Below are positions 29,192 to 54,496 of a stretch of 64,000 bases of DNA, piece by piece (position 1 is the first letter of the stretch; each line of letters opens with the position of its first letter). The stretch is taken from positions 32,001 to 96,000 of the IMG/VR virus record IMGVR_UViG_3300011116_001048. One strand, 5' to 3'. Position numbers and translations under genes: made by a program. The notes beneath the pieces are model-generated. The model did no database searches, was not told the DNA's origin, and saw only the letters and a list, made by a program, of their open reading frames with translations. The DNA comes from a virus.

Positions 29192-29830
29192 ATGAAAACT
29201 GAAGTGATTTCTTTTTATAGTGACATAGACGGTAAAACATATTACAGCGATCATGCAAAACGGCTACACGAACAGTTAGTTCGTTTAAATATACCACATG
29301 ATATCAGACAAAAAGATTCTTTAGGTTCGTATCAAAAAAATTGTCTGAGTAAACCACAATTCATTTATCAACTGTTAGTCCAAAAACAAAAACCACTTGT
29401 TTGGTTGGATATTGATTCAGACGTGCGAAAAGATCTGAATATATTTGATCAATTTATAGGAAATACAGATTTGGCAGTCGCATGTTCTACCAACAAACTG
29501 CACGCAGCAAAAGCATCACCGATCTATTTAGATTTTAATTCCAAAGTATTGGAATTTTTACAACACTGGACCTTTATGGCAAAACAAATGGCTAACAATG
29601 GCCAATGGTTTGATCATGAAGCTTTAATAGGAATTTTACACTCTTTCTACCAAAAAGAAGGATTTCGTATGAAATTTATAGGTCCAGAATATTGTGTATG
29701 GCCCGGTCAAGAAAATGAACATTCGGCTATTGTAATGGGTCTAGCGGATGCTGATTCAAAGAAAGAAGCTCTGAAAAGATTAGGAATGAGTGAGGATTTA
29801 ATAGCATGGCAGAGTCCCGGTACAAAATAA
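29192..29830 (+). CDS. Putative GT-A nucleotide-diphospho-sugar transferase
   Basis: KP.FI before the DxD motif WLDID, then DHEAL; pattern of GT77/GT34-like enzymes. Confidence 0.6.
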   Translation: MKTEVISFYSDIDGKTYYSDHAKRLHEQLVRLNIPHDIRQKDSLGSYQKNCLSKPQFIYQLLVQKQKPLVWLDIDSDVRKDLNIFDQFIGNTDLAVACSTNKLHAAKASPIYLDFNSKVLEFLQHWTFMAKQMANNGQWFDHEALIGILHSFYQKEGFRMKFIGPEYCVWPGQENEHSAIVMGLADADSKKEALKRLGMSEDLIAWQSPGTK

Positions 29831-30690
29831 AAGGAATAGGTCTTCCTTTTGATGCGTCTCATTCGTCTTGTTCTAATATAAAACCAAAAAAATTTGATTG
29901 GAATTTACAAACAGGAATATGTAACGTCCATGTTGATCGTGGATTGATGATTCGTCCTGATTATTCTTTTGAAAAAAATAAAACATTCGGATGGGTGTGT
30001 GAGTCCAAATTTATTGTTCCGGACGTTTATAATTTTTTAATTCATAATTATAAAATTTTATTTGAAAATTATTATAATAAAATATTTACATGCGATCATG
30101 AATTATTATCTTTGCATAAAAATTTTATATATTGCCCTAATGGTAGTAATTATCCTTGGGTAAATAAAAATGATTGGAAAATTTACTCTAAAAATAAAAC
30201 ATGTTCGATGTTTTGTTCTCCAAAATTGATGACAGAAGGGCATGTATACAGACATCAAATTGCGAGATTAGCTCTTGATTGTGGTTTTGATGTATTTGGC
30301 GGTGCACACGGAACAAAAAGAACAGTAACAGATATACGCAATCCATGGAATACTAAAATAGATGGTATCAGAGATTATATGTTTAGTATCGTGGTAGAAA
30401 ATGGTGTTTACGATGCGTACACCACAGAAAAAATAACAGATTGTTTTGCCACAGGTACTATTCCTATATACGTAGGAACAAAACAAATCCCAAGCTGTTT
30501 TGATCCACAGGGAATTATTTGGTTGGAAATGGACAAAGAAAAACAAATACTTGATACTTTAACCGAAGAATTATACATATCTAAGATTAAGTCAATAGAG
30601 CACAATTTAAATGCTTTGAGTCATTTTAAATTAGCAGATGATTACTTATACGAGATGATAGAACATGAAATTTTTAACCCAACTAAATAG
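29806..30690 (+). CDS. GT10 (alpha-1,3-fucosyltransferase-like) glycosyltransferase
   Basis: GT10 motif K...I.DY.FSI.VEN.....Y.TEK..DCF..G.IPIY.G. Confidence 0.8.
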   Translation: MAESRYKIKGIGLPFDASHSSCSNIKPKKFDWNLQTGICNVHVDRGLMIRPDYSFEKNKTFGWVCESKFIVPDVYNFLIHNYKILFENYYNKIFTCDHELLSLHKNFIYCPNGSNYPWVNKNDWKIYSKNKTCSMFCSPKLMTEGHVYRHQIARLALDCGFDVFGGAHGTKRTVTDIRNPWNTKIDGIRDYMFSIVVENGVYDAYTTEKITDCFATGTIPIYVGTKQIPSCFDPQGIIWLEMDKEKQILDTLTEELYISKIKSIEHNLNALSHFKLADDYLYEMIEHEIFNPTK

Positions 30691-31327
30691 TGGCTGTATT
30701 GATATCTGTAAAAATATGATTAAATCTGGAGAATTAGTAGGATTAAATCCAGATGATTTTATTATTGCTTGCCTGGATAAAAATGCACACAACGAATTGA
30801 AGCATTATAAAGGTGCGTTTTTATATCAAGAAACACCATTAACAAATTATCAAAATTGGTCTTTTGATCCGTCTAGTAATTTTAGACAAATTGTTAAAAA
30901 TAAATGGAAATTAATTAAAGAAATATACCAAACACATAAATCTCTTTGTTGGATCGATACGGATATTGTGTTTAAATCAAATCCATTACCCATAATCGAC
31001 AACCACACTCATATACTGTTTCAATGCGATACTCCCGGTTCTTTTATTTGTTCTGGATTTATGGTATTTAATAATACAAAAGAATGTGAACAACTAATAT
31101 CTGAATGTGGAGAAAACACAGAAGAAGACGATCAAATTTTAATCAACAATAAAGTAAGAAAGTACGCAAACAGCTGTGGCATATTAGATCAAGAAAAATT
31201 TCCAAATGGTTATGTGTATCATACACTAGGAAAGAAAGACAAAGCCGTGATAGTGCACAATAATCATATGGTGGGGATTGATACAAAAATTAATAAATTT
31301 AAACAAGAAGGAATGTGGCATATATGA
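30665..31327 (+). CDS. Nucleotide-diphospho-sugar transferase (GT77-like)
   Basis: Motifs ACLD, K.K.I, W.DTD.VF..NP, CSGF, DDQ...N, FPNG and VH.N..VG...K. Confidence 0.75.
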   Translation: MKFLTQLNSGCIDICKNMIKSGELVGLNPDDFIIACLDKNAHNELKHYKGAFLYQETPLTNYQNWSFDPSSNFRQIVKNKWKLIKEIYQTHKSLCWIDTDIVFKSNPLPIIDNHTHILFQCDTPGSFICSGFMVFNNTKECEQLISECGENTEEDDQILINNKVRKYANSCGILDQEKFPNGYVYHTLGKKDKAVIVHNNHMVGIDTKINKFKQEGMWHI

Positions 31328-32172
31328 TCTATACAGAAGACCGATTTAGAATTAAACCCAGTTATCCAACATATCCACCATATCATATTGGTGATTATCT
31401 TGAAGATTATTTTTATAATAAATTTTCAAAAGAATTACCACATGTAAATGCAGATTATATTGGTATAAGTTGGACTACACTATACTGTGATAATAAAAAA
31501 CAAGATCTCCAAGAATATTTAAATAATCTTCCTATAAATGGTAACTATTTTACAGTGAGTCAACACGATGATGCTCCCATGGAGCATTTACCAAAAAATA
31601 CTTTGTGTTTTTCTGCTGGAGGAAATATACAAAAATCTGGTATAGTACCAATACCTTTAGTTTGTTCAGAATTACCAATAAAATCACAACAAGAAACACA
31701 TAAACGAGAATTGCTTGCATGTTTTGTTGGTTCTTATACTCACCCTATCAGACAAAAATTAATGAAAATTTGTGAAAATATAAAAGATATTACATTTTAT
31801 ATGAGACAATCAACTGGTAAGCCTTTGATACAAGATGAATTTAAAATGTTTATAAACAGTGCAATAAACAGTAAATTTTGTTTATGTCCTAGAGGATACG
31901 GTTTAAATAGTTTTAGATTATATGAATGTATGCAATTGGGTTGCATACCAGTTATTATAACAAATAAATTTTATTTACCATGGGAAGATGAATTAAATTG
32001 GAATGATTTTTCTGTTCTGATAACAGAAAATGATTTACCCAATTTAGAAAATATTTTACGATCATATTCCGATGAAAAAATAGAATATATGAGAAATAAA
32101 ATAAAACAACTATGGCCTATTTATTTTTCTCTAAATGGTGTTTATAACAATATAATCAAGAGAATCAAATAA
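31324..32172 (+). CDS. Exostosin-family (GT47) glycosyltransferase
   Basis: Motifs F.GS..HPIR..L, SKFCLCPRG.G..SFRLYE.M..GCIPVII....LP....L.W..FSV. ATGA-coupled start. Confidence 0.85.
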   Translation: MIYTEDRFRIKPSYPTYPPYHIGDYLEDYFYNKFSKELPHVNADYIGISWTTLYCDNKKQDLQEYLNNLPINGNYFTVSQHDDAPMEHLPKNTLCFSAGGNIQKSGIVPIPLVCSELPIKSQQETHKRELLACFVGSYTHPIRQKLMKICENIKDITFYMRQSTGKPLIQDEFKMFINSAINSKFCLCPRGYGLNSFRLYECMQLGCIPVIITNKFYLPWEDELNWNDFSVLITENDLPNLENILRSYSDEKIEYMRNKIKQLWPIYFSLNGVYNNIIKRIK

Positions 32173-32801
32173 TGAAAATATTTTTAGTACACAAAAAAGG
32201 ATTAAAAAACAGACTTAATAACATTTTAGAGTTATTAACTAAATGTAATTTTGTAGAAGATATAGAAATTGTTACTTCTGAAGATAGCTCTGTTGTATTT
32301 GCTTCAGATGCGGAAAGAAATTCAATACTTCTTCCTAATTTTCCAAACAAAAATTTAACAAATAAAGAAAAATCATTATATCATAAACAATATAAAATAT
32401 TAGAAAAAATATCAAATTTAACAGAACCTGCATTAGTTTTTGAAGATGATGTTTTTTTTGATCCTATAATTCTAGAAAAATTTATTGCTGATTTAAAAAA
32501 TATTCCTAATGATTGGGATTTTATATTTTTTGGAACCGGTTGTAATTTAAGTATAGAAGGACAGGGATTTGTTAAAAACACAAAACTATTAAAGTCAAAA
32601 TGTACAGACAGCATGTTAATAACACCATCAGCTGCTAATAAATTATTTAATGAGATAAAACAAAATAAAGCATATTATGCATACGATTGGGATTTAAATT
32701 ATAGGTTTCTTAAATTAAATATGAATGTATACTGGTATGAGCCAGGTATAACTATTCAGGGTTCACAAAATAACATTTATAAAAGTGAAATACAAATATG
32801 A
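32172..32801 (+). CDS. GT25-like glycosyltransferase
   Basis: Motifs R..I, SL..K, LVFEDDV, WD.IF.G and T...LI...AA.KL. Confidence 0.7.
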   Translation: MKIFLVHKKGLKNRLNNILELLTKCNFVEDIEIVTSEDSSVVFASDAERNSILLPNFPNKNLTNKEKSLYHKQYKILEKISNLTEPALVFEDDVFFDPIILEKFIADLKNIPNDWDFIFFGTGCNLSIEGQGFVKNTKLLKSKCTDSMLITPSAANKLFNEIKQNKAYYAYDWDLNYRFLKLNMNVYWYEPGITIQGSQNNIYKSEIQI

Positions 32802-33574
32802 AAATAGAAATAATAACATTACCGAGTGCAAAAAATAGACAAGAAAGAATGCAAAAATTATTTGGTGAATTTAATTTACTATTTACATTCAAAAATGGTA
32901 TATCTCAAGATGAATGTTCTTTTGAAAATATTCATGGGCTGTGGTATGTTAATTGTAAAGGTAAAAAATTTTTAATAAATGAACCAAAAATATTAAAATA
33001 TACAAATCGAGCTTGGATGCGTTTTGGAGAAATTGCGGCATATCTTGCCCATTATTTTTTATGGAAAGAGTTTTTAAACACGGAAGACGAATATTTGGTT
33101 ATCTGTGAAGATGATGCAAAACCACAATCAAATTTATCTAAATTAAAACAATTATTTTTATCAAATAATGATGTTTGTTTTTTAAATCTACAAGCAGTAA
33201 CAGCACACAATCAATCAAAAACCCCCGGTTACAATTTTCCTCATGTTAACGTACTATCTCCAGATCTGGTAGAATACATTAATACCCCAGCACTTCCATT
33301 ATTATGTGAAGGATTGGCCGCATACGCCATAAACAAAAATGGAGCTAAAATTTTAACCGATTACGTAGAAAATAATGGTTATGTTGGTCCTAATGATTGT
33401 ATGTTAGCTCAAGTAGTCAAAGAAAATATTTTAAAAATACATTCTCCAAAAGATATAGACCAGTATTTTTTATTAGATGAGCAGACATATGAACATTCAT
33501 ATACCCATAGCGGAAAATTTGAATTATTACATAATTTTAATACAACTTATATTAATAAAGTTACACAATTTTGA
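32798..33574 (+). CDS. GT25-family glycosyltransferase
   Basis: Motifs I.L.....R...M, GEIA.Y..H..LW, I.EDDA, AY.I...GA..L and P.D. Confidence 0.8.
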   Translation: MKIEIITLPSAKNRQERMQKLFGEFNLLFTFKNGISQDECSFENIHGLWYVNCKGKKFLINEPKILKYTNRAWMRFGEIAAYLAHYFLWKEFLNTEDEYLVICEDDAKPQSNLSKLKQLFLSNNDVCFLNLQAVTAHNQSKTPGYNFPHVNVLSPDLVEYINTPALPLLCEGLAAYAINKNGAKILTDYVENNGYVGPNDCMLAQVVKENILKIHSPKDIDQYFLLDEQTYEHSYTHSGKFELLHNFNTTYINKVTQF

Positions 33575-33610
33575 TATAAGATATACTGATAGACCTTTAA
33601 GGAAATAATA

Positions 33611-34462
33611 ATGAACATATCATTTATTGATTTTTGGGATGGATTCGTATATGAAAATAATTTTTTTATTGATTTATTAAAATCAATGAATAGAAATTAC
33701 AATTTAGTTCCATTTTCAGACAAAACTGATGTTTTAATTTATTCTTGTTTTGGTGAAAGGCACAAAGCAGCAAACAGAAATAAAGTTAAAAAAATATTTT
33801 ATACCGGAGAAAATGTAAGACCAAATTATAATGATTGTGATTATAGTTTAACATTTGATTTTGATACGTATTCTCATAAAAATATACGATTACCTTTATG
33901 GTTATTACAATTAGATTGGTTTAATAAAAAAAACTATGGCAATCCACAATTTGTCATTCCATTACAAGAAATAGCTTATAATAAATGGATACAAAAAGAA
34001 AAAACTCAATTTTGTTCTATTGTTTTTAATAATCCCTCACCATATAGAATAGAAATGATACAAAAGTTGTCAAAATATAAACCAGTTCATTGTTATGGAA
34101 GAGTAACTAATAACTCTATTCCTTATGGAGAAGATACTAAATGTGAATTAATATCTAATTATAAATTTAATATATGTTTTGAAAATTCAATACATCCAGG
34201 CTATTATACAGAAAAATTAATACACGCAAAAATATCAGGATGTCTTCCTTTGTATTGGGCAGACAATAATTGTGAAAAAGATTTCAATCCAAATTCATTT
34301 TTAAATCTTTACAATTTTAATAGTATAAATGAATTTGTAGATAGAGTTATATGGTTAGATAACAATCAAGAAGAATATAATAAAATTTGCGACGAATATC
34401 TTTTTAAGGATAAGGTTTTATCACTAGATAATATAAAACAACAGCTTACTAATATTTTATAA
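33611..34462 (+). CDS. GT10 alpha-1,3-fucosyltransferase-like enzyme
   Basis: Motifs F.GEN.RP, FCS.V..N....R, K......YKFNICFENS..PGYYTEK..HA...G..P.YW; H. pylori FucT-type layout. Confidence 0.87.
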   Translation: MNISFIDFWDGFVYENNFFIDLLKSMNRNYNLVPFSDKTDVLIYSCFGERHKAANRNKVKKIFYTGENVRPNYNDCDYSLTFDFDTYSHKNIRLPLWLLQLDWFNKKNYGNPQFVIPLQEIAYNKWIQKEKTQFCSIVFNNPSPYRIEMIQKLSKYKPVHCYGRVTNNSIPYGEDTKCELISNYKFNICFENSIHPGYYTEKLIHAKISGCLPLYWADNNCEKDFNPNSFLNLYNFNSINEFVDRVIWLDNNQEEYNKICDEYLFKDKVLSLDNIKQQLTNIL

Positions 34463-34479
34463 ATGAAAGAAACATTTTT

Positions 34480-35118
34480 ATGATATATCAAAGAGAAAGT
34501 ACTTTACCATACCCCCAACCATGGGAATATGTTATGCATAACATATTTAATAATGCAAAAAATTTATTTTTTGTTGATGTTGGAGCTCATGATGGATTAT
34601 GTTCATCTAATACAGCATATGCCGAAATGGATTTAGAATGGAATGGTATTTGTGTAGAACCACACCCAGATGTATACCCCAAGCTAATAAAAAATAGAAA
34701 ATGCAAAACCTACAATTGTTGTATAAGTCAAAATACTGAAGAAGTAGAATTTTGTAGTATACGAGGATATTCTGAGATGTTAAGTGGGATAAAATCAGCA
34801 TATGACGAAAAACATATGGATAGAATCAAAAATGAAATTACAAATCATGGCGGTGAATTAAATATAATAAAAATTCAATCCAAAACATTAAATGATTTAT
34901 TTCAAGAAAATAATATAAATCATATTAATTATCTTTCTATTGATACCGAAGGATCCGAATTAAACGTTTTAAAAAGTGTAGATTTGAACAAATACAAAAT
35001 AGATGTAATAAGTGCAGAAAATAATGGTTACAATTCAGATGTTAAAGATTATTTAAATGATTTATATCTTTTTGTTGGTAAAGTTTGCCACGATGAAATT
35101 TATGTGAGAAAACCATAA
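34480..35118 (+). CDS. FkbM-family SAM methyltransferase
   Basis: Motifs FFVDVGA.DG...SNT, W.GIC.EP.P and I.YLSIDTEG.E..VL. Confidence 0.9.
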   Translation: MIYQRESTLPYPQPWEYVMHNIFNNAKNLFFVDVGAHDGLCSSNTAYAEMDLEWNGICVEPHPDVYPKLIKNRKCKTYNCCISQNTEEVEFCSIRGYSEMLSGIKSAYDEKHMDRIKNEITNHGGELNIIKIQSKTLNDLFQENNINHINYLSIDTEGSELNVLKSVDLNKYKIDVISAENNGYNSDVKDYLNDLYLFVGKVCHDEIYVRKP

Positions 35119-36119
35119 TGAAAACTATTTGCTTTTATACACCACATTTCACTGTAAGAGGAACAGAAGTAGCCGTTTACGACTATGCTCATTATAATGA
35201 AAAAATATTAGGAAATAAATCTATAATTGTTCATCATAAAAATGATTCCAGAAATGAGGCAGAATCTGTTACTAAGTTTAAAAATAGATTTGATGTTGTT
35301 TCTATGGAAGGATTCAATTATATTGAAAATAATCCAAGAGCTCATGCCGCAGAAGTTGTAACTCAATTAAATAAAGTTATCGAAACTAATAAAGCAGATG
35401 CCATGTATTTAATAAAAGGTGGTTGGAATGATGGTATAGTTCCAACAGCATGCAAAAGCCTCATACACTGCTGTGGGCTTCCTCCAGTAACAGAGAAGCA
35501 CGGTGATCGTTATGCGTACGTTTCTTATTGGTGCAGTCAACATTGCTCTAATGGAACCATACCAGCAGTTCCGCATATGGTAGATTTACCAGATATAAAT
35601 GAAGATTTTAGATTAGAATTAAATATTCCACAAAATGCAACAGTATTTGGTAGGTCTGGAGGATATGATACTTTTGATCTTCCATGGGTAAAACAAATTA
35701 TACAAGAAGTATTAAAACGACGATCTGATATTTTCTTTATATTTTTAAATACTGAAAAGTTTATAGATCATCCAAATGTAATTCATCTGGGTAAAAACAC
35801 AGATTTAATTTATAAAACAAAATTTATTAATACTTGTGATGCAATGCTTCATGGTAGATTTATTGGTGAATCTTTTGGTTTGAGCTGTGGAGAATTTTCT
35901 ATAAGAAATAAACCAGTAATAACTTGGTTTGGTTCTAAAGAAAGAAATCACATCTATATTTTAGGCGACAGAGGAATTTATTATAATAACCCTACAGATT
36001 TATTTAAAATATTAATGAATTATGATCGAGAATATTACCTAAATAAAGACAACAATTGCTATAGAGATTATAGCCCAGAAAAAATAATTAAGGTATTTGA
36101 TGAGGTTTATTTAAAATGA
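35118..36119 (+). CDS. Putative GT-B (GT4-like) glycosyltransferase
   Basis: N-terminal RGT..A.YDYA.YNE.ILG, and the donor-binding-like motif CDAMLH.R..GESFGL..GEFS. Confidence 0.7.
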   Translation: MKTICFYTPHFTVRGTEVAVYDYAHYNEKILGNKSIIVHHKNDSRNEAESVTKFKNRFDVVSMEGFNYIENNPRAHAAEVVTQLNKVIETNKADAMYLIKGGWNDGIVPTACKSLIHCCGLPPVTEKHGDRYAYVSYWCSQHCSNGTIPAVPHMVDLPDINEDFRLELNIPQNATVFGRSGGYDTFDLPWVKQIIQEVLKRRSDIFFIFLNTEKFIDHPNVIHLGKNTDLIYKTKFINTCDAMLHGRFIGESFGLSCGEFSIRNKPVITWFGSKERNHIYILGDRGIYYNNPTDLFKILMNYDREYYLNKDNNCYRDYSPEKIIKVFDEVYLK

Positions 36120-36934
36120 AAAACAATCTAGTAATTACAACTTCTTTATTTGATCTAAATAGACAAAATTGGAAAAATTATAATAGATCTATAGATCAAT
36201 ATAAAGCTTATTCTAAAGGAATGTTGTCGCTTGATTGCGACATGGTAATTTATACACAGCCGCAATTTAAAACTTATTTTGAAGAAGCAAGATCAGGTAA
36301 AGAAAATAAAACAAAAATAATAACAATGAGTTTGGAAGAAATTCCATATTATGAATATATGGAAGAAATAACAAACTTAATGAATAGTGATTTTTTTATT
36401 AAAAATGTAAGAAATGTACCTGGAATTGATATATACAGACCAGAAGCAAATTATCCAATTTATAATATTATACAATTTGCAAAATCAAAATTTGTTAAAA
36501 ATACAATAAAAAATAATTATTTTAATTCCAAATACCATTGTTGGATGGATGTTGGCATTTATCATGACAAATACCCCGAAAGATTTAAAAATAAAAAATA
36601 TCCTAGTAGGAATTTAGAACAATTAGATGATGAAAAGATTCACCATTTTTATGTCGATTTTCCAAGAGAAACTGATTTGAATAAGTTAGAATATTATTCA
36701 ATGATTGGTGATGTTAGAATGGCCGGTGGTTGGTTTGGTGGAGTTAAAAATTCTATGATATTGTATTCAGAATTAATAGAAGATGTTGTAAAACAGTCTA
36801 TAAAAGAAAATGTTATTTCCGATGATCAAAACATGTATACAATAGCGTATTTACAAAATAAAGATAAATTTACACTACATGATGGAAGGTTTGCAGTAAA
36901 TCCCATGTTTGCTGGTCTGGATTATTTTCTATGA
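36116..36934 (+). CDS. HtrL/YibB (WlaTC)-family glycan-associated protein
   Basis: Motifs .T..FD..R..W....RS...Y, M.I.T, Y..I...K..FV, W.D.G, AGG.FGG and DDQ. Confidence 0.75.
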   Translation: MKNNLVITTSLFDLNRQNWKNYNRSIDQYKAYSKGMLSLDCDMVIYTQPQFKTYFEEARSGKENKTKIITMSLEEIPYYEYMEEITNLMNSDFFIKNVRNVPGIDIYRPEANYPIYNIIQFAKSKFVKNTIKNNYFNSKYHCWMDVGIYHDKYPERFKNKKYPSRNLEQLDDEKIHHFYVDFPRETDLNKLEYYSMIGDVRMAGGWFGGVKNSMILYSELIEDVVKQSIKENVISDDQNMYTIAYLQNKDKFTLHDGRFAVNPMFAGLDYFL

Positions 36935-37755
36935 TTAGTGTTACACTGTATGGTCGTTTAGGTAATCATTTATGGCAATATGCTGTTTGTAGAACTGTTG
37001 CTGAACAAAAAAACTACGAATATCATATTCCTAAAAATTTTTTAGGAATTCATCTGTTTGATTGTTCTTTGGGTACAGAACAAGATCTAACAAATAAATG
37101 TTTTCCAACATGTAATAACCACGATCAGATGCAAAAATACGATCCAGAAATATTTAATATTGAAGATTTTACAAAAATAGATGGTTATGTTCAAACAGAA
37201 AAATACATTAAACATAATAAAAAAAATATAATAGAATGGTTTAAACCAAAACATGATGTCACTCCAATAATAAAAGAACTAAAATTAGATGAGGATGTTT
37301 GTGTTATTGGATTTAGAGGAGGGGATTATAAAGATAAACCTCACGTATATCTTAATATAAAGTTTTATTACGATTCTATGGATTATATGCGAAGTATAAA
37401 TCCTAATATTAAATTTATTATTATTACAGATGATCCAGAAGAAGCAAAGAAGCATTTTTCTGAATATCCAATTTATAATTATGGAATGGTTGGAGATTTT
37501 TATGCGATACAATTTGCAAAATATTTAATAATAGCAAATTCCACATTTTATTGGTGGGCAGCTTGGTTGAATACCAGATCAAAAGTAACCGTTCTTCCAA
37601 AGTATTGGTTACGACATAATATAAGTGAAGGGTGGTGGATGCCTTCTGATTCTCTAACAGAAGATTTTATTTATATTGATAGAGATGGAAAAGTCCAAAC
37701 TTATGAGCATTGTTTGGCCGAAATAACAGATATAAATTATCAACCGCAATACTAA
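36931..37755 (+). CDS. GT11 (alpha-1,2-fucosyltransferase-like) glycosyltransferase
   Basis: Motifs GRLGN.L.QYA, DGY.Q..KY, RGGDY, TDD.E and IIANSTF.WWAAWLN. Confidence 0.85.
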   Translation: MISVTLYGRLGNHLWQYAVCRTVAEQKNYEYHIPKNFLGIHLFDCSLGTEQDLTNKCFPTCNNHDQMQKYDPEIFNIEDFTKIDGYVQTEKYIKHNKKNIIEWFKPKHDVTPIIKELKLDEDVCVIGFRGGDYKDKPHVYLNIKFYYDSMDYMRSINPNIKFIIITDDPEEAKKHFSEYPIYNYGMVGDFYAIQFAKYLIIANSTFYWWAAWLNTRSKVTVLPKYWLRHNISEGWWMPSDSLTEDFIYIDRDGKVQTYEHCLAEITDINYQPQY

Positions 37756-37761
37756 TTTATC

Positions 37762-38388
37762 ATGCTAAATTTAGTAATAATAACTTCTGTAATTAATGCG
37801 TTTGTTCCATCTATATATTCTTCAACAGAAAGATTAGAACAAACTTTAAGATCTATACAAACAGTCAAAGACAAAATACCAAATTCTTATATAGTATTGC
37901 TAGAAGGAAGTCAATTAAATGAAGATCACTCCATTATCTTACGAAGCAAAACAGATGAATTATTTTATATAGATGTTTCTGGATTACCAAAAAGTGTTGG
38001 AGAATTAACTTTATTGGATTCGTATTTAAATTGTGAAAATTTTAATATTATTAAAGATAAAATTAATAGTTTAAGTAAATTATCTGGCAGATATTATCTA
38101 AATGATAATTTTAAATTTGTTGATAATAATTTATGTATGGTAAAAAAAACAGATAAATCATGGAGCGGAAAAGGAACGTACGATACCAGATTTTATAAAA
38201 TACCAAAAATTTTATTAAATAATTATATTACGAATTTAAAACAAGTTTATTTGAATAGGTATAATATACACGATATTGAACATGGGTTTTACGAATATCA
38301 AGTTATATCAAAAGACAATATAATGCTCTTAGATAAACTAGGAGTGTCCGGTAATTATGCCCCAAATGGGGGATATGTAGAGGATTAA
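37762..38388 (+). CDS. Hypothetical protein, probably glycosyltransferase-like
   Basis: ITS.I...ER..QT...I..V..KIP...I.L.EGS and KLSGRY.LN.NF; GT-A-like topology and operon context. Confidence 0.45.
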   Translation: MLNLVIITSVINAFVPSIYSSTERLEQTLRSIQTVKDKIPNSYIVLLEGSQLNEDHSIILRSKTDELFYIDVSGLPKSVGELTLLDSYLNCENFNIIKDKINSLSKLSGRYYLNDNFKFVDNNLCMVKKTDKSWSGKGTYDTRFYKIPKILLNNYITNLKQVYLNRYNIHDIEHGFYEYQVISKDNIMLLDKLGVSGNYAPNGGYVED

Positions 38389-38390
38389 AT

Positions 38391-38993
38391 ATGCTAAGAA
38401 CAGAAATTATTAATTTATTAATAAACAAGAATAACTACGAATCATATTTAGAAATTGGAATAGGCGATGGTGGTAATTTTACACAAATAAATTGCAAAAC
38501 AAAAATCAGTGTAGATCCGCATCCAGAATGTTACAAATTAAATCCAACATTTAAAATGACTTCTGATGAGTTTTTTAAAATTAATAAACAAAAATTTGAT
38601 ATCATTTTTGTAGATGGCCTTCATACATTCGAGCAAACATACATCGATATCAAAAATGCGTTATCGTGTTTAAATGAAAATGGAATAGTATTAGCTCATG
38701 ATACTTTACCACCATCCGAATACCACCAACGAGAACCAGACCAATATAAGATTGGGGAGGCATGGAATGGTACTTGCTGGAAAGCAATTGCCAAACTTAG
38801 AATAGAAGAAGAAAATCTGACAATTAATACGGTCGATACTGATTGGGGGGTTTCTTTAATTAAATTTGGTAAAAATAATAAATTTAATACAGAAAAAAAT
38901 TCAACATTAGATTACTTATTTTTTTCTAAAAATAAATTAAATTTAATGAACATAATTACAATTGAACAATTTAAAAATTTATATTTATCATGA
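38391..38993 (+). CDS. Class I SAM methyltransferase (Methyltransf_24-like)
   Basis: Motifs SYLEIG...G, SVDP, SD.FF, FD.IFVDGLH..EQ...DI.NAL..L..NG....HD and D.DWG. Confidence 0.85.
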   Translation: MLRTEIINLLINKNNYESYLEIGIGDGGNFTQINCKTKISVDPHPECYKLNPTFKMTSDEFFKINKQKFDIIFVDGLHTFEQTYIDIKNALSCLNENGIVLAHDTLPPSEYHQREPDQYKIGEAWNGTCWKAIAKLRIEEENLTINTVDTDWGVSLIKFGKNNKFNTEKNSTLDYLFFSKNKLNLMNIITIEQFKNLYLS

Positions 38994-40389: not shown

Positions 40390-40391
40390 TT

Positions 40392-41387: not shown

Positions 41388-41399
41388 TTTTTATCAGTA

Positions 41400-42659: not shown

Positions 42660-42661
42660 AC

Positions 42662-42669
42662 GATAAATA
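42662..42669 (+). promoter_or_regulatory. Late promoter-like GATAAATA, 5 nt before the ATG at 42675
   Basis: 7/8 match to consensus; marks the switch from glyco-enzymes to structural genes. Confidence 0.55.
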
Positions 42670-42674
42670 CTCGT

Positions 42675-45472: not shown

Positions 45473-48400
45473 ATGAAATTAAAAATACGAAACATTTTAA
45501 ATCAAATAACTCCAAAAATAATTCAAGGAGTCCGTCGTAGTGTATTTTCGCTCTCTATAAAAGATAAAATACAATATCAAATTATACCGTTACAAATACC
45601 GTATCCAAATATAATAGGAGAATCAGAATCATACAATATTATTCTGGGTTCTTGGTTTGAAATACCTAATAGCTCCAGTTTAACTTCTATTGTTCCGTTT
45701 GTCTGGGTTAGCTATAATGATATTTTTAATATTAATAATTCCAATACACCTATTGAATCCGCATCTGCCGTAAGAAGCCGATTGGATGGAATTTCGGCTG
45801 GTAAACGGTTCCTTGCTCCTATACGATATTGGGGACCCAGATCAATTTGGGGGGCAACAACCGACAATATACCGTCCGGATCTGTTCCCGGAGTGACAAA
45901 CGTAACTCCATGGGCAGATACTGGAATAAAAGGAGTAACTACCGAATGGAATTCTTGGTTAGATTCTCTGGGAACTACTTTTGATTTTCTTATTATTGAT
46001 CAAGAAAACCAATACATGATAAGTTCCTTTGATGGAATTACTTTTGAAAAAAAATTAAAAGGACTAACCGGAGACTCCAGATATACGCAAGCAAAATACG
46101 GCCTTTCTTCTTTGTCTGATTTGTTATCAGGAATTACATTAACTAACGTTACTTTAGGAGCATATTCTTCAGGAGCAGAATATATCACATTCAATAAAGT
46201 TATTGGGCAATACGGTGCAGCAGTACTGAATCGTGCATTGTGGGATTATTCAAAACAAAAATTACCAGATTTAAGAGGAAGCAATTACGACGGATTTATT
46301 GCTACAATAAACCCCGGACCGGATTCTAATGGTCACCCACAAAGCCACGACGATATCTTTGGTACTGCTTCTGCACCACATTTCTACGGAATATTAGAAG
46401 GAATAAAGACCGCATGGTATGTGAACAAATCCAACCCAACTCAATTAATTTTTAGATACACTGCACCTGCTGGATACACTTTTTCGGATCTGGTGCCACA
46501 AACCGTTTGGTCTGGATTTATTCAAAGCCAACAGCTAGCACGGTCTGTTCGTCGTTCTGATGCTACTAAAGGATTTCATCCGTGGATCGCCAGTCCAGGA
46601 TACACCGGAATTTCGGTTGATGCTCCTGTATTATTTTCTACAGACGATAGGTATTATTACGAAAATATAATACATCTTGGACTATTGGGAGCAGAAGCGT
46701 ATTTGTATTGGAATCCATCACAATTTAATGGATTAAGTTTAACGTATGCAACTAAAATAGATTCCACAATAAACGAATTAAACACGCGATTTGGTAATAA
46801 AAGAATAAAAGAAACAGCCCCATCAGGACTTACTTCCATTTCTTGGAACACAAATTATATAACAACAGGGGCTAAACTAGCAAACAATACGTATTTGTGG
46901 CGAACAACATTTAAACCAGAAATTTCAATAGCTGTTGATACAAGCACAAATGTACAATATATTTTGGGTTCTGATGTTGGTGTCTGGAAAACAACCACAA
47001 ACTCTACCCCACCAGAATATTCATATATTGACAGTTTAATATTTTATGACGGTAGTACAGGCGGAATAACTCAAATTTACGATATTAGACAAATGAGTGG
47101 TGGTGGTAGAGCTCCTGTTGCTGCTTACGAAGCAATGGGAGCCAAATATATGCCGTATGTGCAAAATATAGATCCGTATTATTTGTGGTATTACGACAAA
47201 ATTGACGGCATTCCTGGTCTAACTACTGGTTGGAAAGGCGGTCTGACTGCTAATGGCTCTTTACGATTTGGTGAAGGGTATAATACTAATGCTTTCAATT
47301 ACGTGACATCACGAGAAATCGACAACATAGTTCGTCTTCTGGTGTTACAAGGGGTAACTGCAAGTAAAACCGAATATATTTACATAAATTGGTTTGAAGA
47401 TCATAGAGATGTTGGTCATTTTGGGTTTGGAGTAATGACAGGTCCAACCGATAGTGTTGATATTATCAGCACCACTGTCGATAATAACGGAATAACATTC
47501 CAACAGCCGCAAGCTTTAATTTCTCAAGACAATCAAGGACGAACTGTTCGACAAAACTTTACAGAACTAGCGTACACTATAGCAAAAATTTTTGATGGCG
47601 GAACAGGAACAGACGGCGTATATTTCCACGGTTTACGTCATTACTTTCCTAAATGTAAATTTGGTGTGTACAATTGGCCTGTTTGGGGTTATTATTTTCA
47701 AGACGGTTCCGGGAACGTGTTAGGAAATAACGTTTCTGTTGCGAACATTCAAAGTAAAATTGATTTTTATGCGGACGCGTGGATTAAAGGAATGAGTGGT
47801 GCTATTGATTCTTTTGATATGTGGATGCCTAGTTTTTATTCTAGTTTAAATTCTCCAGATATGAATAGAATTAGAGTTATACAAGGGGTTTCCGCATGCG
47901 TTAAGATTAATGAATTATTGAGTGCAGCAGGAAAACCTAAAAAATTAATTATTCCGTTTGTTAGTGTGTTCTACAACACCATAGCAACAGGCAACCCGTA
48001 TTCACGGCAAACTTACGAAACAGAATATTATTATACTCCTCCTTGGACTATACAGACCGATGCTAATATAAATTACGAACAGTTACAACCTATTATGAAT
48101 GGTGGAGGAAATGGAATTGCTATATGGCAAAATACCGCTACCAATAGATGGATCGTGGCGGGAAGAATAACTAACGGACAAAATGAAGACACAGCACCAC
48201 AACCAGAGTGGCGAAAATGGATGTTTAATCACCCAGGCGGAACAACGGCTGGAATTAATCAGTGGTCGGATAAAACTATGTTAAGGCAAGCAATTTCAGC
48301 ACAGTATAATTACCTTAAAGGCGTGTGTTTGGGTGCAACAGGAAATCGTTGGTGGTGGGCAACAGCAAGCCAGAACACATTTGCAGGCCCTGTAGAACAG

Positions 48401-48598
48401 TATACGCCGTCAGAATGGTTACCGTTGGGACTGTCGTTGGCTCCTTACGGAAACAAAGTAGCGTATTACAACGGAACAGCAGACAGAGGAGCCACTTCAT
48501 CGTTTGAAACTCAACAAATAATAGACTATGTATTAGAAGACGCAAAAGTTCGAATGATACAAACCGCTAAATCTCTTTGGTCTAAAAACAATACTTAA
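45473..48598 (+). CDS. Large protein with two putative glycoside-hydrolase-like barrels
   Basis: Domain 1 has FLIIDQE...SAPHFYG...PWI...LYWNP. Domain 2 has [12 protein letters not shown]...MWMPSFY...GGNGIAIW, resembling GH56 hyaluronidase motifs. Confidence 0.45.
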
Positions 48599-48612
48599 TA
48601 ATTTTTAATCGT

Positions 48613-50073
48613 ATGGATAAATTTAAAAAATATTTTAATATAGACGAATCTGCAGAACCACAAGCAGAACCACCTGTATTAGAAAGAGTGGTACCCATTC
48701 CCGGTCCACAAGGACCAAGAGGTCCTGTTGGCCCACCCGGACCTCCGGGCGAAGACGGCTGGGCAGGCCCACAAGGCGAGCGTGGTCCTGTTGGCCCTCA
48801 AGGCCCTCAAGGCATACCCGGTCCCAAAGGCGATAAAGGTGATAAGGGTGATACAGGCGAAACCGGTTGGCCCGGTGATAAGGGCGAACCCGGCATTCAA
48901 GGCGAACCCGGTCTTATGGGACCTCAAGGACCTAAAGGCGAACGTGGAGAACCCGGCCCCCAAGGACCCCAAGGCGTTCCCGGTGTAAACGGTAAAGACG
49001 GTGCTCAAGGACCAAAAGGTGAACAAGGTATTCGAGGCGAACGTGGGCCTCAAGGACCTCAAGGAGTTCCCGGTGTAAACGGTAAAGATGGTGCTCAAGG
49101 ACCAAAAGGAAAACAAGGACCGCAAGGAAAACAAGGACCTCAAGGACTACAAGGACCACAAGGACCTCAAGGCCCAGAAGGCCCGCAAGGACCACAGGGC
49201 CCTCAAGGCGAACCGGGAATCGTTTCTGCTAACTATCCTTTAGTATTAGAACAGGGCGAGCTTTCTTTTGATGGGTCTAAATTTAAACAAGACATTACCA
49301 GTTTAATAAAAACAAAGCTGGATGCTCAAACTGTAGCTCAAAACTTCCAATGGCTGAATACCGGTTCGGTTGGTGGTGGTGCTGTTGGAATTTATAAAGA
49401 TAAAGCCAGAATAATAAAATCTGTAAACGATTTAAATTTTGTTGGTAATAATATAACAGTTACCCGTAAAGGTAAACAAGTAGACGTTTCAGTTAGTAGT
49501 GAAATTACTGGAGATTATGTTAAATACGTAAACGGTCTTATTGGTGCGGTCACATTAGCAGCAGGACCAAACATATCATTAACCACAAATAATAATACTA
49601 TTACTGTTGCCAGTAGTCCTGGATTTACATACACTTCAGAAACACCGGTGTATACTCCTACAGTTGGTGATCGTTGGATGGATTCTGATACTGGTGTGGA
49701 ATACGTTTGGGTAGACGATGGTACCAGTACACAATGGATTCAACCAACTAACACAGCACAAGGCAGCGCATCTAAAGTTTCCATACTACAAACAGTTTCT
49801 ATAACCGGAGCCACTTACGCAGCCACTGCATTGGACTACTATATTGGTGTGAGTTACGCTGGTCAGTCCGTAATCACGCTTCCTGCTGCTCCAGAAGCTG
49901 GTCGAGAAATGGTGGTTAAGGACGAATCGGGCCATGCTGGCGATAATATTAATCGCTGGATTACTATTTGTGGAGCCAGCCCAACCAAGATAGACAACCA
50001 AGACACTGCCGTACTAAACATAAGTAACGGTGGTCTTCACTTCATATACAACAACGGATGGAGAATTATATGA
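48613..50073 (+). CDS. Collagen-like fibre protein
   Basis: About 57 uninterrupted G-X-Y triplets, then a V..VNG..G.V motif, a GDRW module and a C-terminal DYY.GV......TLP...GR...VKDESG domain. Confidence 0.85.
48703..49218 (+). repeat. Collagen G-X-Y repeat tract
   Basis: Continuous Gly at every third codon, with an internal duplication of [22 protein letters not shown]. Confidence 0.95.
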
Positions 50074-51305
50074 GTTACCTGTTTAACAATAAAGTGGGAT
50101 TTGTGGATAATGCGGTGGACGCGTTTAATCGTCTCCGAGTTTCTACGGAATTTACACTTTTTGACAGCCAAAATCGTTACCAAGCCAATGATAAGTGGGA
50201 CACGTTTGGTGTAACAGGCGGCACTGCTGAATACGTTTTGAACGAAAGTGCTATTAATCTGATTGTGGGAACCACAGTAGGTTCCAAACTAACCAAAGAA
50301 ACCAAGCGTGTGTTTCCGTATCAACCGGGTAAATCACTACTGATACTGAATACTTTTGCCATGGCTACGCCAGTAGACGGTGTACGTCAGCGTGTAGGAT
50401 ACTTTGGTATAACCGGTGGTGCCACTGCTGGTGTTCCGTATAACGGAATTTATTTAGAACAAGACGGAATCACGTTAAGTATTGTTTTAGAATCTGCTTC
50501 ACTAAACACCACAACCCGTGTAAATCAGACCGCATGGAACGGAGACACGTTTAACGGACTGGGAGCTTCAGGCAGAAGTCTAAACGTGACCAAAGGTAAC
50601 ATATTCTGGATGGACATTGAATGGTTAGGTGTAGGCGATGTCCGTACCGGATTCTTTGTTGACGGAAAACCGGTAGTGGCCCACACGTTCCATAATGATA
50701 ATGAAAACTCAACCACGTATATGACTACTGCGTGTCTGCCTATTCGTTACGAGATAGAAACCACTAAAGCACAAGCGTCCAGTCATACCATGAAACAGAT
50801 TTGTTCCAGCGTTATTTCAGACGGTGGATACGAAGGGTTTAGTCGCAGATACAACGTTTCTTCGGATGGAGATTTAATTACCATGGGAACCGCAAAGGTG
50901 TATTATCCCCTAGTGTCTATCCGATTAAATCCTAACAGACTGGACTCTATTATTGTTCCGTCTAATATCTCTATGGTATTAAACGGCCAACAATGGGTTC
51001 ACTACCGTGTTGTATTAAACGGAACGTTTACTGGAGGAACCCCGGTTTGGAGTACCCACTACAACGGAAATGTAGACTATATTGTTCACACCGCCGGAAC
51101 TTTAGGTTTAACTGGAGCAACAGACATTATCGGCGGTTATATCAGTTCTAGTAGTTCCGTGATTGATATTAATTCTGCTTCAAACTTTAATTTTCAGCTA
51201 GGCCGTACTCAGACAGGAGTTAGTGATGTGTTGACCATAGTAGCAGCAGGAAGTTCTAACAATGCTGGTGTTGGTGTAGACTTGTCTTGGTTCGAGATCG
51301 TATAA
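50070..51305 (+). CDS. Putative virion structural protein (beta-rich)
   Basis: ATGA-coupled to the collagen gene. DAFNRLRVS...LFD, YQPGKSL, GV.QRVG.F, W.D.EWLGVG.VR.GF and T..LP.RYEI; lies between two fibre genes. Confidence 0.55.
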
Positions 51306-51308: not shown

Positions 51309-51318
51309 CCTTTAATCT

Positions 51319-54150
51319 ATGCCATTAAATTTTCCATCTAATCCTGCTGTAAACGAACCGTACACTTTTGGTGGTCGTACGTGGATCTGGAACGGTTCTG
51401 CATGGGATTCGTATAACACTGCAGTTACTGGTCCTACTGGTCCTATTGGATTCACCGGAGCTACGGGTCCAACAGGTCCAACAGGAGCTACGGGTCCTAC
51501 TGGTCCTATTGGATTCACCGGAGCTACGGGTCCAACAGGTCCAACAGGAGCTACGGGTCCTACTGGTCCTATTGGATTCACCGGAGCTACGGGTCCAACA
51601 GGTCCAACAGGATTGCAAGGAAACACTGGGGCAACTGGTCCTGTAGGTGATTACGTAATATCGCTTAATGGATTAACTGGTATACTTTCGCTCCTAGCGT
51701 CCACAGGAATAAGTGTTGCTGCAGCCGAAAAAGGAATTACGTTTATTAATACCGGTGTACTGAATTTTAATGGTTTAACTGGTGCTGTAACAGGAATTAC
51801 ACAAATTAATTCTGGATCAGGTATCTTAATATCTGGAACCACCAATCCAACTATAACAAACACTGGTGTTACCGGATTTAACGGTTTAACCGGAGCAGTG
51901 TCTGGTGTAACTGCAGTAAATGCTGGTACAGGTATCAGCGTATCAGGCACTACCAATCCTACCGTAACCAATACTGGTGTATTGAGTTTTAATACACTAA
52001 CCGGAGCAGTAACAGGCGTAACACAAATAAACGCTGGATCGGGTGTACAGATAACAGGTACTACCAATCCTACAATTACTAATACTGGCGTTACAGGATT
52101 TAACGGAGCAACAGGAAATGTTACTGGAGTTACTGGAGTTGCGGCAGGTACCGGTATCAGTATATCCGGTTCCACCAATCCTACAATTACCAATACGGGT
52201 GTTCAGTCATTCAATGGTCTCACAGGAGCAGTATCTGGTGTTACCACATCCGTAGCTAATACCTTTACCGCACTTCAAACATTCAATACAGGTATAACTT
52301 CTGCTGGTGCCACATTTAACGGCAACGTGGCCATGACCAGCACTTCGTCCCATACAGGTCTTGCGTCCTTTGCTGGTGGTATTAGTGCTTCTGGTGGTAT
52401 CACGTTTACAGGAACAATAAACGGACTTCGATTAACCGCTTTTGGTACAGACAATACTATAATCGGAGCAACAGGAGCAGGTATTGCCTTAACCACAGGA
52501 ACAGACAACTTCTTTGGTGGGGCACGAGCAGGAGATGCAGTAACAACAGGTAGTAGAAACGTTGCTATAGGTACTGATGCGTTGGGCGGGACTACTGGAG
52601 CATCCGATACAGTAGCTATAGGATATAATGCTCTGTTAGTAAATAGAGCAGACGGTGCGGTAGCTATAGGATCCAATGCACTAAAAAGTTTAACAACGGG
52701 AACGGAAAATTTTGCATTAGGTTTTAATGCTGGAGCCGCAATCAATACGGGCAGTAGAAACGTGGCAATGGGTGCGTATGCGTTAGCACAAGCCACAACA
52801 GTAAATGATTGTGTGGCAATAGGACGTTATGCTCTAAACTATAAAACTGGTAGTGGCGACCATTGTGTTGCTATAGGTCCCGGTTCTATGTTATACGCAA
52901 CATCGGCGTCTAATTGCGTTGCTGTTGGTGGTGCTTCACAAAGAGGTAGTGATCTGGTAACAGGTACGTATAATTCGTCTATCGGTTACGGGTCAATGCT
53001 TAATATAATAAGCGGTAACTACAATACCGCCGTAGGTTACAATTCATTATACAGTTTAACCGGCGGTTCAGAAAACATTGCTTTTGGTGGCGAAGCTTTG
53101 GTGGCTTTAACAAACACAGGAAAAAATACTGCTGTAGGTCAAGTTGCTTTACGAAACATTACCACAGGTAATTCTAATACTGCTATAGGATATGGTGCTG
53201 GTCAATACAAAACTTCGTCAGATACCAATCATACTTTATCTGGTGATGCAAACGTGTATATTGGGTTTCAAGCTAGAGCCAGTGGAGACAATGTTACTAA
53301 TGAAGTAGTTATAGGCGGCAATAAACCTGTTGGTTCTGGTTCTAATACTACAACTATTGGTAATTCTTCTACAACATTAACTCAACTGTTTGGCAAAATT
53401 AGTACTGCCCAAGGTATCAGTGCTTCTGGTGGTATCACATTTCAGGATACTATTTCACTAAACGGACAAACATTTACAAATGTGGTTTCTTCTGTGAATG
53501 GTTTAACAGGAGCACTTGCTAATCTATCTGCACCGGCGGGGCTCACTTCATCTACTGCGGTATATACGTTTCCTAACGGAGTGACTGCTTACAGTGCAAG
53601 TAGCACACCGTATTACACTTCTCCGTATTTTGGTTCTCGTTCTGTTAGTACTAGCACACTAACACCAAACAGAACTTATTTTGTTTTACATCAAGCACCA
53701 CGAGCGATATCTTTGAAGAATATAAGAATAGCCGCAAATTCGCCTTCAGTTGCTATGAACTTATATCTAAGTGTATGGACTGTGAATCCTTTAACAGGGT
53801 TACCACAATCTAGATTGTACGTATCTGGAGGACTAACGGCCAATGCTAGTACTTTTAACTATGTAACAGTAACAAATGCTTCAGGATTAGTTAGCGTGCC
53901 TGCAGGTCCATTTTATATGGCAGTAACAGTCAGTAATTCGCTTCCCACGTACGCACACAGTAACGATAGATCGATAAATCTTTACGGATCCGATAATTAC
54001 GTAACCGGTTATCAGAATTACGCTCCTGTTTTAGACACTGATGGATTTACTGCCCCAACCAGTATCACTCAAGCAGGAACAACATTTGCTTTCGTTAATT
54101 ATATTAATGCTGTGGCACCTACTCCAGTGATGGAGTGGAACCACGTATAA
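51319..54150 (+). CDS. Long tail-fibre/adhesin with Thr-rich collagen segment, 37-aa repeats and beta-roll (YadA-head-like) repeats
   Basis: N-terminal FP.NP..N..YT.G.RTW.WNG..W; a GPT/GAT collagen tract; NTGV..FNG.TG.V repeats; and about 14-residue N.AIG..AL repeats. Confidence 0.85.
51430..51612 (+). repeat. Perfect 63-bp tandem repeat, about 2.9 copies ([21 protein letters not shown])
   Basis: Units start at 51430, 51493 and 51556 and are identical at the nucleotide level. Confidence 0.95.
51748..52250 (+). repeat. Degenerate 111-bp (37-aa) repeat, four copies plus a partial fifth
   Basis: Unit NTGV..FNG.TG.V.GVT....G.G..I.G.TNPT.T; unit 1 starts at 51748 and the fifth at 52192. Confidence 0.9.
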
Positions 54151-54160
54151 AGGAGATTTT

Positions 54161-54496
54161 ATGGACGTAATGATTCATACAATTTACGATGAAGACACAG
54201 GAGAAACTGTAATTATCGATAAAAGACATTTTTATCGGTGTGTAGACCATCAGCTTCAAATTATTCGTGAACAAGCCAAAACTCTTATTCTTGAAGCCGC
54301 ACCAGAATACAAACAACGAAATGCTGCTTTAGGACTGTTATCTTCAGAAGAAATAGAAGAAATTAAAACAAAGATTCAAAATATTCGTACCGTTTCAAAT
54401 CAAAAAGAACAGGAAATTTTATCTGTTGTTTGGGATGGAACAGAAAACACCAGACCGGCAGCATGTGATGCGGTACAATCGGTAAGATGGGATTAA
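54161..54496 (+). CDS. Small protein after the fibre gene, possibly a tail-fibre assembly chaperone
   Basis: AAGGAG RBS; helical I...A...I....P.YKQ.N..LG......I..IR..SN..E pattern typical of fibre-adjacent genes. Confidence 0.5.
   Translation: MDVMIHTIYDEDTGETVIIDKRHFYRCVDHQLQIIREQAKTLILEAAPEYKQRNAALGLLSSEEIEEIKTKIQNIRTVSNQKEQEILSVVWDGTENTRPAACDAVQSVRWD

Follow-up and report, generated by a model that had tools for sequence, protein, structure and literature searches.

Chloroviruses and mimivirus encode soluble glycosyltransferases (GTs), methyltransferases, and nucleotide-sugar enzymes, by which capsid or fibril proteins are decorated with glycans specific to each clade. Among bacteriophages, glycosylation of mycobacteriophage virions was reportedly described by Freeman and coworkers in Cell Host Microbe in 2023, and the mycobacteriophage systems comprise merely 2-4 GT genes. 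As cited in passages of two papers, these phage GTs, in some cases along with methyltransferases, act in the cytoplasm and attach glycans to structural proteins of the phage that encodes them, at the C-termini of capsid and tail-tube subunits of siphoviruses of Actinobacteria (PMC12801897, PMC12619734). In C. difficile, SgtA, which consists of a GT-A domain and four tetratricopeptide repeats (TPRs) and is encoded immediately upstream of bclA3, transfers beta-O-GlcNAc in vitro onto Thr of collagen-repeat peptides, its acceptor being the G-P-T/G-A-T repeats of BclA3 (PMC7157674). The large GT clusters of marine and freshwater T4-like phages have been named 'LPS (lipopolysaccharide) genes' since 2005, a function that is not known to have been tested. 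In this study, we analysed a window of 64,000 nt (bases 32001-96000 of the 118,564-bp IMG/VR record IMGVR_UViG_3300011116_001048, which is estimated to be 65% complete) from an uncultured T4-like lake phage, and found an island of 17 genes ending in a relative of SgtA. With a probability of roughly 55%, we propose that the island is a cytoplasmic protein O-glycosylation pathway for the phage's own tail-fibre and baseplate-associated proteins.

The island forms a ~13-kb block between regA and the late fibre genes. It consists of 17 consecutive plus-strand open reading frames (ORFs), G01 to G17 (29192-42659; Table 1), as a first-pass annotation of this DNA had described; neighbouring ORFs overlap by, or are separated by, no more than 37 nt. 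That annotation had also taken all 17 for glycan enzymes or look-alikes, which holds for the 13 that Pfam places in glycan-related families and for G01, probably a glycosyltransferase as well, but not for G09, G12, and G15 (35118, 37762, and 39505). These three match no family in Pfam, PHROG, or NCBIfam, and G09 and G15 are also without a PDB match. An analogy with rhamnose (rml) synthesis had been drawn from the single dehydratase, G16, and could not be upheld: G16 scores under the NCBIfam cut-off for RmlB equivalogs (270 vs 365 bits), and no RmlA or RmlC family (PF00483, PF00908) occurs in the 118-kb, 65%-complete record, which leaves the RmlA/B/C/D set incomplete there. By sequence, the island is predicted to be purely cytoplasmic and soluble. 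Of the 17 proteins, 16 lack any transmembrane (TM)-like segment. The exception, G12, has a marginal hydrophobic stretch at its N-terminus, which was considered as a TM anchor and rejected, since it reads as the opening beta-strand of a GT-A fold.

The conserved core of the island is its last gene, G17, the GC content of which (40%) is backbone-like. By sequence and predicted fold, G17 is kin to the protein/peptide glycosyltransferases SgtA, SunS/ThuS, and GmaR over both of its domains. Pfam assigns it to GT2 (E 4e-11) with TPR_19/TPR_17 matches C-terminally, and the DxD motif D94-A95-D96, invariant in 19 homologues, aligns with the DADD of SgtA. In BLASTP, G17 matches C. difficile SgtA with an E value of 6e-19 and 25% identity over 288 aa across the GT and TPR domains. 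The sgtA sequence used here came from a metagenome contig and was located through a published primer; the ORF next to it has 143 triplets, 76% of them G-X-T. A profile of the 19 homologues run against PDB found GmaR, the flagellin O-GlcNAc transferase of Listeria (1.9e-17), SunS (2e-11), ThuS (8.6e-10), and the wall teichoic acid enzyme TarS (8e-7). In the AF2 model (pLDDT 87), helices occupy residues 181-395, and Foldseek aligned the model with ThuS/SunS over ~400 columns (E 1e-15; next unrelated match 1e-6). TPR structures were matched by both the profile and Foldseek. Assignment of G17 as a SunS orthologue was rejected, its score being far under the NCBIfam cut-off for SunS equivalogs (48.6 vs 350 bits). 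As a separate observation, two jumbo phages, Pseudomonas phage PaBG (L147) and Tunturiibacter phage Tunturi_5 (L148), each contain a solitary G17-like GT2-TPR gene, annotated 'beta-1,4-glycosyltransferase', and no glycan cassette; in PaBG, the gene for the head maturation protease follows ~1.5 kb downstream.

In bacteria, relatives of G17 recur next to genes for G-X-T collagen-like proteins, an arrangement of the sgtA-bclA3 kind. One genome per species was scanned, which gave 80 loci from very diverse bacteria with G17 homologues at 40-45% identity. A direct (G-X-Y)n scan found a G-X-T collagen-like ORF flanking 30 of the 80 homologues (within 1 kb in 24 of the 80; median distance 221 bp). The recurrence of the pairing follows from the excess of such ORFs near the homologues: their density is 0.16 per kb within 1 kb vs 0.008 per kb beyond 2.5 kb (binomial p 4e-12), a large effect even in a test that, by counting the nearest ORF per locus alone, somewhat favours proximity. 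BLAST clustering of the same neighbours yielded no conserved neighbour, a misleading outcome because low-complexity collagen genes escape BLAST. PE_PGRS-like neighbours were left out of the collagen count; in Mycobacterium and other loci (L164, L166-L168, and L174), the G17 homologues adjoin Gly-rich PE_PGRS-like repeat ORFs (GGAGGxGG), not G-X-T collagens.

A protein with the same triplet composition is encoded by the phage itself, 8.7 kb downstream of G17. The first-pass annotation had described late-promoter-driven genes and two collagen-like fibres after the island, and both were confirmed: S4 is a collagen of the G-P-Q type and S6 one of the G-X-T type (25 triplets, 76% G-X-T; 16% Thr overall), and the late-promoter motif NATAAATA lies just upstream of 42675 (S1) and 51319 (S6), likewise before the sheath, tube, scaffold, and capsid genes. 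In close relatives, 17-19 nt separate the G17 stop from the start of S1, and in locus L123 S1 forms the N-terminus of a 643-aa protein. Two threonines in the conserved Gly/Thr loop of S1, T59 and T63, barely vary. Complex prediction for G17 and S1 scored 0.00 in both runs, which counts neither for nor against binding. In 15 of the 21 relatives whose sequence extends far enough, S1 is followed by collagen-like ORFs, which are of the G-X-T type in 7; two loci, L033 and L037, keep G17 and S1 and have no collagen gene. The link of the island to collagen fibres is thus frequent, not obligatory. An island 'fused' to fibre genes, as first described, therefore comes down to adjacency, and the expected co-occurrence of GT clusters with G-X-T collagens in related phages holds for collagen genes in most relatives but for the G-X-T type in a minority.

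A G-hydrophobic-T motif is also enriched in the fibre and tail proteins. When G-[AVILFY]-T was tested against composition-preserving shuffles, S1 (z 4.9), S2 (5.4), S3 (7.8), S5 (3.6), and S6 (8.3) were all enriched, as were several upstream tail proteins, with 3-5 fold as many motifs as the composition-matched expectation (in S6, 32 vs 8.5 expected). No enrichment was seen in replication proteins, island enzymes, or T4 gp34/gp37, and gp23 has zero copies. The enrichment in tail proteins is real. A 666-aa tail protein (phrog_5939; window 58067-60067) located between gp43 and uvsX is rich in Thr (15%) and Ser (11%) and has 3 G-hydrophobic-T motifs, which is no enrichment; it may be what the first-pass annotation called a Thr/Ser-rich adhesin.

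The island is not peculiar to this phage. Searches of IMG/VR with G17 gave 64 loci, and with gp44 the 80 nearest of ~600 relatives. In nearly all gp44 relatives (65-99% identity) with sequence past regA, homologues of G01 and G02 come directly after regA, and S1 comes after G17 in almost all of the G17 loci. G17 itself is present in the 64 related loci and in four of five distant relatives. In ~100 related contigs, these conserved GT genes frame a variable cassette: 896 cassette ORFs pooled from 117 loci fall into 236 families (133 singletons), the commonest being SDR sugar enzymes, GT47, FkbM and other methyltransferases, GT2, FUT8-like enzymes, GT1, DegT aminotransferases, and NeuB. In the window, GC content is 23.5-33% in G03-G16 (23.5-30% in genes 4-15) vs 37-45% in the backbone; across loci, too, this middle part has a lower GC content than both the backbone (43 of 43 loci) and G17 (41 of 41), the median gap being 9 points. 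Islands vary from zero to ~20 kb in relatives, with the longest in more distant ones, and the minimal locus, L123, reads regA-G17-S1-collagen, with G17 as the sole GT. Thus, the island belongs to a whole uncultured lineage, with fixed bookends. One G17 homologue (L018:10001-11251) has an in-frame stop, either a pseudogene or an assembly error.

We favour glycosylation of the phage's own fibres on four grounds: what G17 is homologous to and associated with, the place of this conserved core gene just ahead of the late genes, the complete lack of genes for export, and a fitting acceptor encoded by the phage. The acceptor, the order of steps, the sugars, and the work of all 17 genes on one glycan are what we infer, as follows. 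The enzymes would be made early or in the middle period along with the replication genes, and the acceptors late. The TPR domain of G17 would bind the protein acceptor, and the first sugar would be placed onto Thr in Gly-X-Thr contexts, in the G-X-T collagen region of S6 and possibly also in the Gly/Thr loop of S1 and at G-hydrophobic-T sites of neighbouring fibre proteins. G01 and G02 would add the inner part of the glycan. The swappable low-GC cassette would build a strain-specific outer oligosaccharide, methylated and acetylated, using ~7 more GTs, two methyltransferases, an acetyltransferase, and a 4,6-dehydratase that would make a 6-deoxy-4-keto sugar donor.

The first-pass annotation had made the same proposal, which is strengthened by the cytoplasmic nature of the island, the kinship of G17 with SgtA, the collagen neighbours in bacteria, and the G-X-T fibre downstream, but weakened by the lack of late promoters in the island and the inconstancy of collagen genes. 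Several points indeed weigh against fibre glycosylation. The collagen gene is missing from L033 and L037, and the G-X-T type is restricted to 7 of 21 relatives; the G-hydrophobic-T motif was chosen post hoc, by eye, and may have a structural role; and extension of G17's sugar by the cassette enzymes is assumed from their co-location. Timing is another such point. G01 starts 2 nt past the regA stop, the late-promoter motif occurs nowhere inside the island, and a sigma-70/terminator scan of 24400-43200, which remained at chance level save for a good site at 25640, found no convincing promoter or terminator in it. Given this contiguity with regA and the lack of internal signals, the island is probably read with the early/middle replication operon. 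Good sigma-70-like promoters (TTGACT-N16/17-TATATT/TATACT) were noted at 25640-25667 before the RNase H gene and at ~54500-54530 before the dCTP deaminase gene; the block of island and fibre genes is thus flanked by early transcription units.

Early expression would suit remodelling of the host surface, a seroconversion-like process in which soluble GTs hijack the host lipid-linked O-antigen, lipooligosaccharide (LOS), or capsule pathway and alter the receptor glycan that is recognised or degraded by the phage and its competitors, so that superinfection is blocked or progeny are spared loss on debris. GT10, GT11, GT25, and HtrL are families typical of LOS/O-antigen synthesis, the transferases of which are soluble or peripheral and act on lipid-linked acceptors, so that the phage need not supply a dedicated membrane protein. 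In its low GC content and hypervariability, the cassette is like bacterial O-antigen loci, and the island adjoins glycoside-hydrolase-like receptor-binding proteins, which recalls P22 and Sf6, where tailspike genes are paired with O-antigen-modification genes. Moreover, host-surface modification is the published reading of the similar clusters of the cyanomyophage P-SSM2, S-SCSM2R, and the pelagimyophages, where they are treated as host-recognition clusters (PMC1079782, PMC12801897, PMC7029224). Nevertheless, we consider this alternative less likely than fibre glycosylation, though the most serious of those weighed here. The core enzyme G17 groups with protein/peptide GTs and neighbours of collagen genes, not with LPS enzymes. 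Despite whole-cassette exchange, no flippase (wzx), wzy, wzm/wzt, transporter, initiating phosphoglycosyl transferase, or ligase was found among the cassettes of the 117 loci. TM-like segments are lacking in 871 of the 896 cassette ORFs and number two at most, and the membrane parts of seroconversion systems (GtrA/B/C, Wzx/Wzy, TM O-acetyltransferase) are absent, there being no polytopic membrane protein in the window or in the 117 loci. In addition, our literature search found no experimental support for host-surface remodelling in any T4-like phage. A lytic phage has little time to replace the LPS already on the cell.

Protein glycosylation may also be directed elsewhere, with G17 priming and the cassette extending a glycan on host pilin, flagellin, S-layer, or porin, or on a non-virion phage protein. 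Among the relatives of G17, GmaR indeed modifies flagellin, and SunS/ThuS modify secreted peptides; the G17-like genes of PaBG and Tunturi_5 are solitary and away from fibre genes; and L033 and L037 do without collagen genes. However, throughout the lineage G17 stays together with the late S1 gene and the fibre module, its homologues are associated with collagen-like genes, and no candidate host target can be named, which makes such a target quite improbable in comparison with the phage's own fibres.

The first-pass annotation had further suggested glycosylation of DNA. In this case, the GTs would decorate hydroxymethyl-pyrimidines of the phage DNA as a defence against restriction. Phage GTs that build di- or oligosaccharides on 5hmC DNA are known (bioRxiv 10.1101/2023.12.21.572611), and T4 glucosylates its own DNA. 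The suggestion nonetheless found no support, and we regard it as very improbable: no thymidylate-synthase/hydroxymethylase family (PF00303) occurs in the record or in five relatives that are 68-85% complete, all of these records being incomplete, and no C5 DNA methylase (PF00145) in this incomplete record. The Tet/JBP family PF12851 gave no match in the record and none in control genomes either, and so is uninformative. The families that are present, moreover, are fucosyl-, galactosyl-, and exostosin-type GTs and sugar O-methyl/O-acetyl transferases.

If the island does glycosylate the phage's own fibres, phage virion glycosylation would extend from mycobacteriophages to Gram-negative myoviruses, and abundant aquatic phages would have variable glycan coats, with a bearing on host recognition, particle stability, stickiness to organic matter, and grazing. 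The idea of virion glycosylation is made concrete here by the kinship of G17, the G-X-T neighbours in bacteria, and an exporter-free pathway. A broader proposal, which we offer tentatively and at somewhat less than even odds, is that of a lineage-wide 'serotype' system, in which abundant uncultured aquatic T4-like phages would coat their tail fibres, and perhaps other tail proteins, with strain-specific methylated/acetylated O-glycans, primed in SgtA fashion at Gly-X-Thr and elaborated by O-antigen-like cassette swapping.

Table 1. Glycan island, late genes, and surrounding blocks, in window coordinates.
Feature	Position	Strand	Description
Terminase, sheath, portal, scaffold, major capsid protein	7-18 kb		PHROG
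UvsW, gp55, gp47/46, RNase H, gp45, gp44, gp62, regA	block ends 29189		PHROG; followed by the island
regA	28785..29189	+	translational repressor; phrog_242 E 1.5e-52; conserved left anchor of the island
G01 + G02	29192..30690	+	conserved 5' bookend
G01	29192	+	212 aa; GT34/GT77-like, language-model lead alone (ESM atlas Nucleotid_trans/GT34 clusters, score 0.98)
G02	29806	+	GT10-like, weak (Pfam GT10 E 5e-6)
G03-G16	30665..41387	+	variable low-GC cassette
G03	30665	+	Nucleotid_trans, GT77-like (Pfam)
G04	31315	+	GT47 (Pfam)
G05	32172	+	GT25 (Pfam)
G06	32798	+	GT25 (Pfam)
G07	33611	+	two-domain GT10 fucosyltransferase (FucT)-like (Pfam)
G08	34480	+	FkbM methyltransferase (Pfam)
G09	35118	+	no family match
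G10	36116	+	HtrL (Pfam)
G11	36931	+	GT11 (Pfam)
G12	37762	+	no family match
G13	38391	+	Methyltransf_24 (Pfam)
G14	38990	+	hexapeptide acyltransferase, soluble type (Pfam, NCBIfam)
G15	39505	+	no family match
G16	40392	+	SDR NDP-hexose 4,6-dehydratase, RmlB-like (Pfam, NCBIfam)
G17	41400..42659	+	GT2 (GT-A) + TPR; conserved 3' bookend; candidate protein-priming enzyme
Late-promoter-like motif GATAAATA	42663..42670	+	before S1; equivalent before S1 in most relatives, distant ones included
S1	42675..43085	+	136 aa; BppU_N-like late protein with conserved Gly/Thr loop (phrog_1084; ESM atlas, lead only)
S2	43082..45457	+	791 aa; N-terminal ~77-aa adaptor common with S3; probable receptor-binding protein or enzyme
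S3	45473..48598	+	1041 aa; two modules of ~500 aa (~45635-47038 and ~47039-48598)
S4	48613..50073	+	collagen-like fibre, G-P-Q type; 58 triplets, 3% Thr; Pfam Collagen 6e-30, tail-fibre PHROGs
S5	50058..51305	+	virion structural protein; phrog_1645 E 1.1e-94
S6	51319..54150	+	943-aa fibre; N-terminal G-X-T collagen region (residues ~35-110), Gly/Thr-rich repeats; own late promoter at 51301
S7	54161..54496	+	111 aa; last gene before the early dcd/gp43 block; adjoins o106b/gp43 in L016 and L018
dCTP deaminase/dUTPase, gp43 DNA polymerase, UvsX, gp41, gp61	after island and fibre region		PHROG

Between the island and the collagen fibres lie S2 and S3 (43082 and 45473), which the first-pass annotation had taken for adhesin-like fibres. 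The predicted glycoside-hydrolase fold of S3 and the adaptor common to both point instead to virion-borne depolymerase-type receptor-binding proteins, which they probably are. The model of the S3 N-terminal module (pLDDT 87.7) comprises a (beta/alpha)8 barrel and a beta-sandwich, and its best structural matches are GH42, GH164, GH35, and GH5, nearly all of the top 50 being glycoside hydrolases (VIA). Against a GH42 beta-galactosidase, the VIA Z score is 17.6, with an rmsd of 4.1 over 364 residues; D117, D122, E124, E343, and H347 of S3 are invariant. S3 has no sequence match in Pfam or PDB, and its modules are found in relatives singly or inside 2000-aa proteins. Separately, the S3 module family has ~130 representatives in 1.8 billion proteins, some in proteins of at least 2000 aa. 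Judging by the N-module model, these phage receptor-binding proteins may form a glycoside-hydrolase family not described before. S2 has no family match (Pfam, PHROG, PDB), and a locus search with it found no relative; its N-terminus is 44% identical to that of the S3 orthologue of L002. S2 and S3 were considered as paralogues and this was rejected, their clear likeness being limited to the N-terminal ~77 aa. S7, the last gene of the late region, has no family match in PHROG or Pfam.

The window as a whole has the classic T4-like gene order by PHROG matches. The best cultured relatives of its gp43 are cyanomyoviruses, at merely 46% identity, megablast of the region's two halves against cultured phages found no DNA-level similarity, and tblastn of G01 and S1 against cultured phages gave no match. 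The phage is thus a member of an uncultured T4-like lineage. Two further loci were noted. A 540-aa ORF (window 13622-15244), located between the prohead-protease region and the scaffold gene where AT skew is very high (0.23-0.25), matches nothing in PHROG or Pfam. Between gp46 and RNase H lie two small genes (246 and 106 aa; window 24590-25643); the C-terminus of the 106-aa product resembles tail-fibre assembly proteins (phrog_3304), as S1 weakly does, and this gene is kept 5' of gp45 in nearly all relatives.

The island resembles several known systems in part. The chloroviruses and mimivirus are eukaryotic giant viruses with enzymes that are not known to be related to those of the island, and tblastn with G17 gave no mycobacteriophage match. 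Bacterial O-antigen and capsule loci are alike in architecture only, with conserved flanks, a lower-GC variable middle, and cassette exchange; unlike the pan-cassette described here, they carry wzx/wzy or ABC transporter genes. The clusters of P-SSM2, S-SCSM1, S-SCSM2R, and the pelagimyophages likewise belong to aquatic myoviruses and consist of hypervariable islands with GT10, GT11, GT25, GT2, SDR, and tail-fibre genes (PMC1079782, PMC12801897, PMC7029224). In contrast to our island, they occupy another genome position (VrlC-gp14 or scattered), are read as host O-chain modification, and have no described conserved-bookend architecture; tblastn found no homologue of G17, G01, or S1 in the cultured phages of this marine T4-like group. 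Since large GT clusters beside fibre genes had already been published for aquatic T4-like phages, the island is not 'unusually elaborate' for a tailed phage, as had first been thought.

SunS/ThuS and GmaR, the best fold and profile matches of G17, are like it in being cytoplasmic, in having a helical-repeat domain, and in using a peptide or protein acceptor; they differ in that their acceptors are bacteriocin peptides or flagellin and that they add a single sugar, with no elaboration cassette. The SgtA-BclA3 system shares with the island the order of a GT-A domain followed by TPRs and an acceptor with the triplet make-up seen in S6 (76% G-X-T). It differs in that the identity is 25%, that the phage collagen gene is 8.7 kb off rather than adjacent, that the phage enzyme closes a 16-gene elaboration island, and that the particle would be a phage, not a spore. 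In summary, GT-rich hypervariable islands with fibre genes in aquatic T4-like phages, and virion glycosylation in mycobacteriophages and giant viruses, were known before; what is new is the framing by conserved bookends at the regA-gp43 junction, the relationship of the core enzyme to SgtA, SunS, and GmaR, and the statistical pairing of its family with G-X-T collagen genes.

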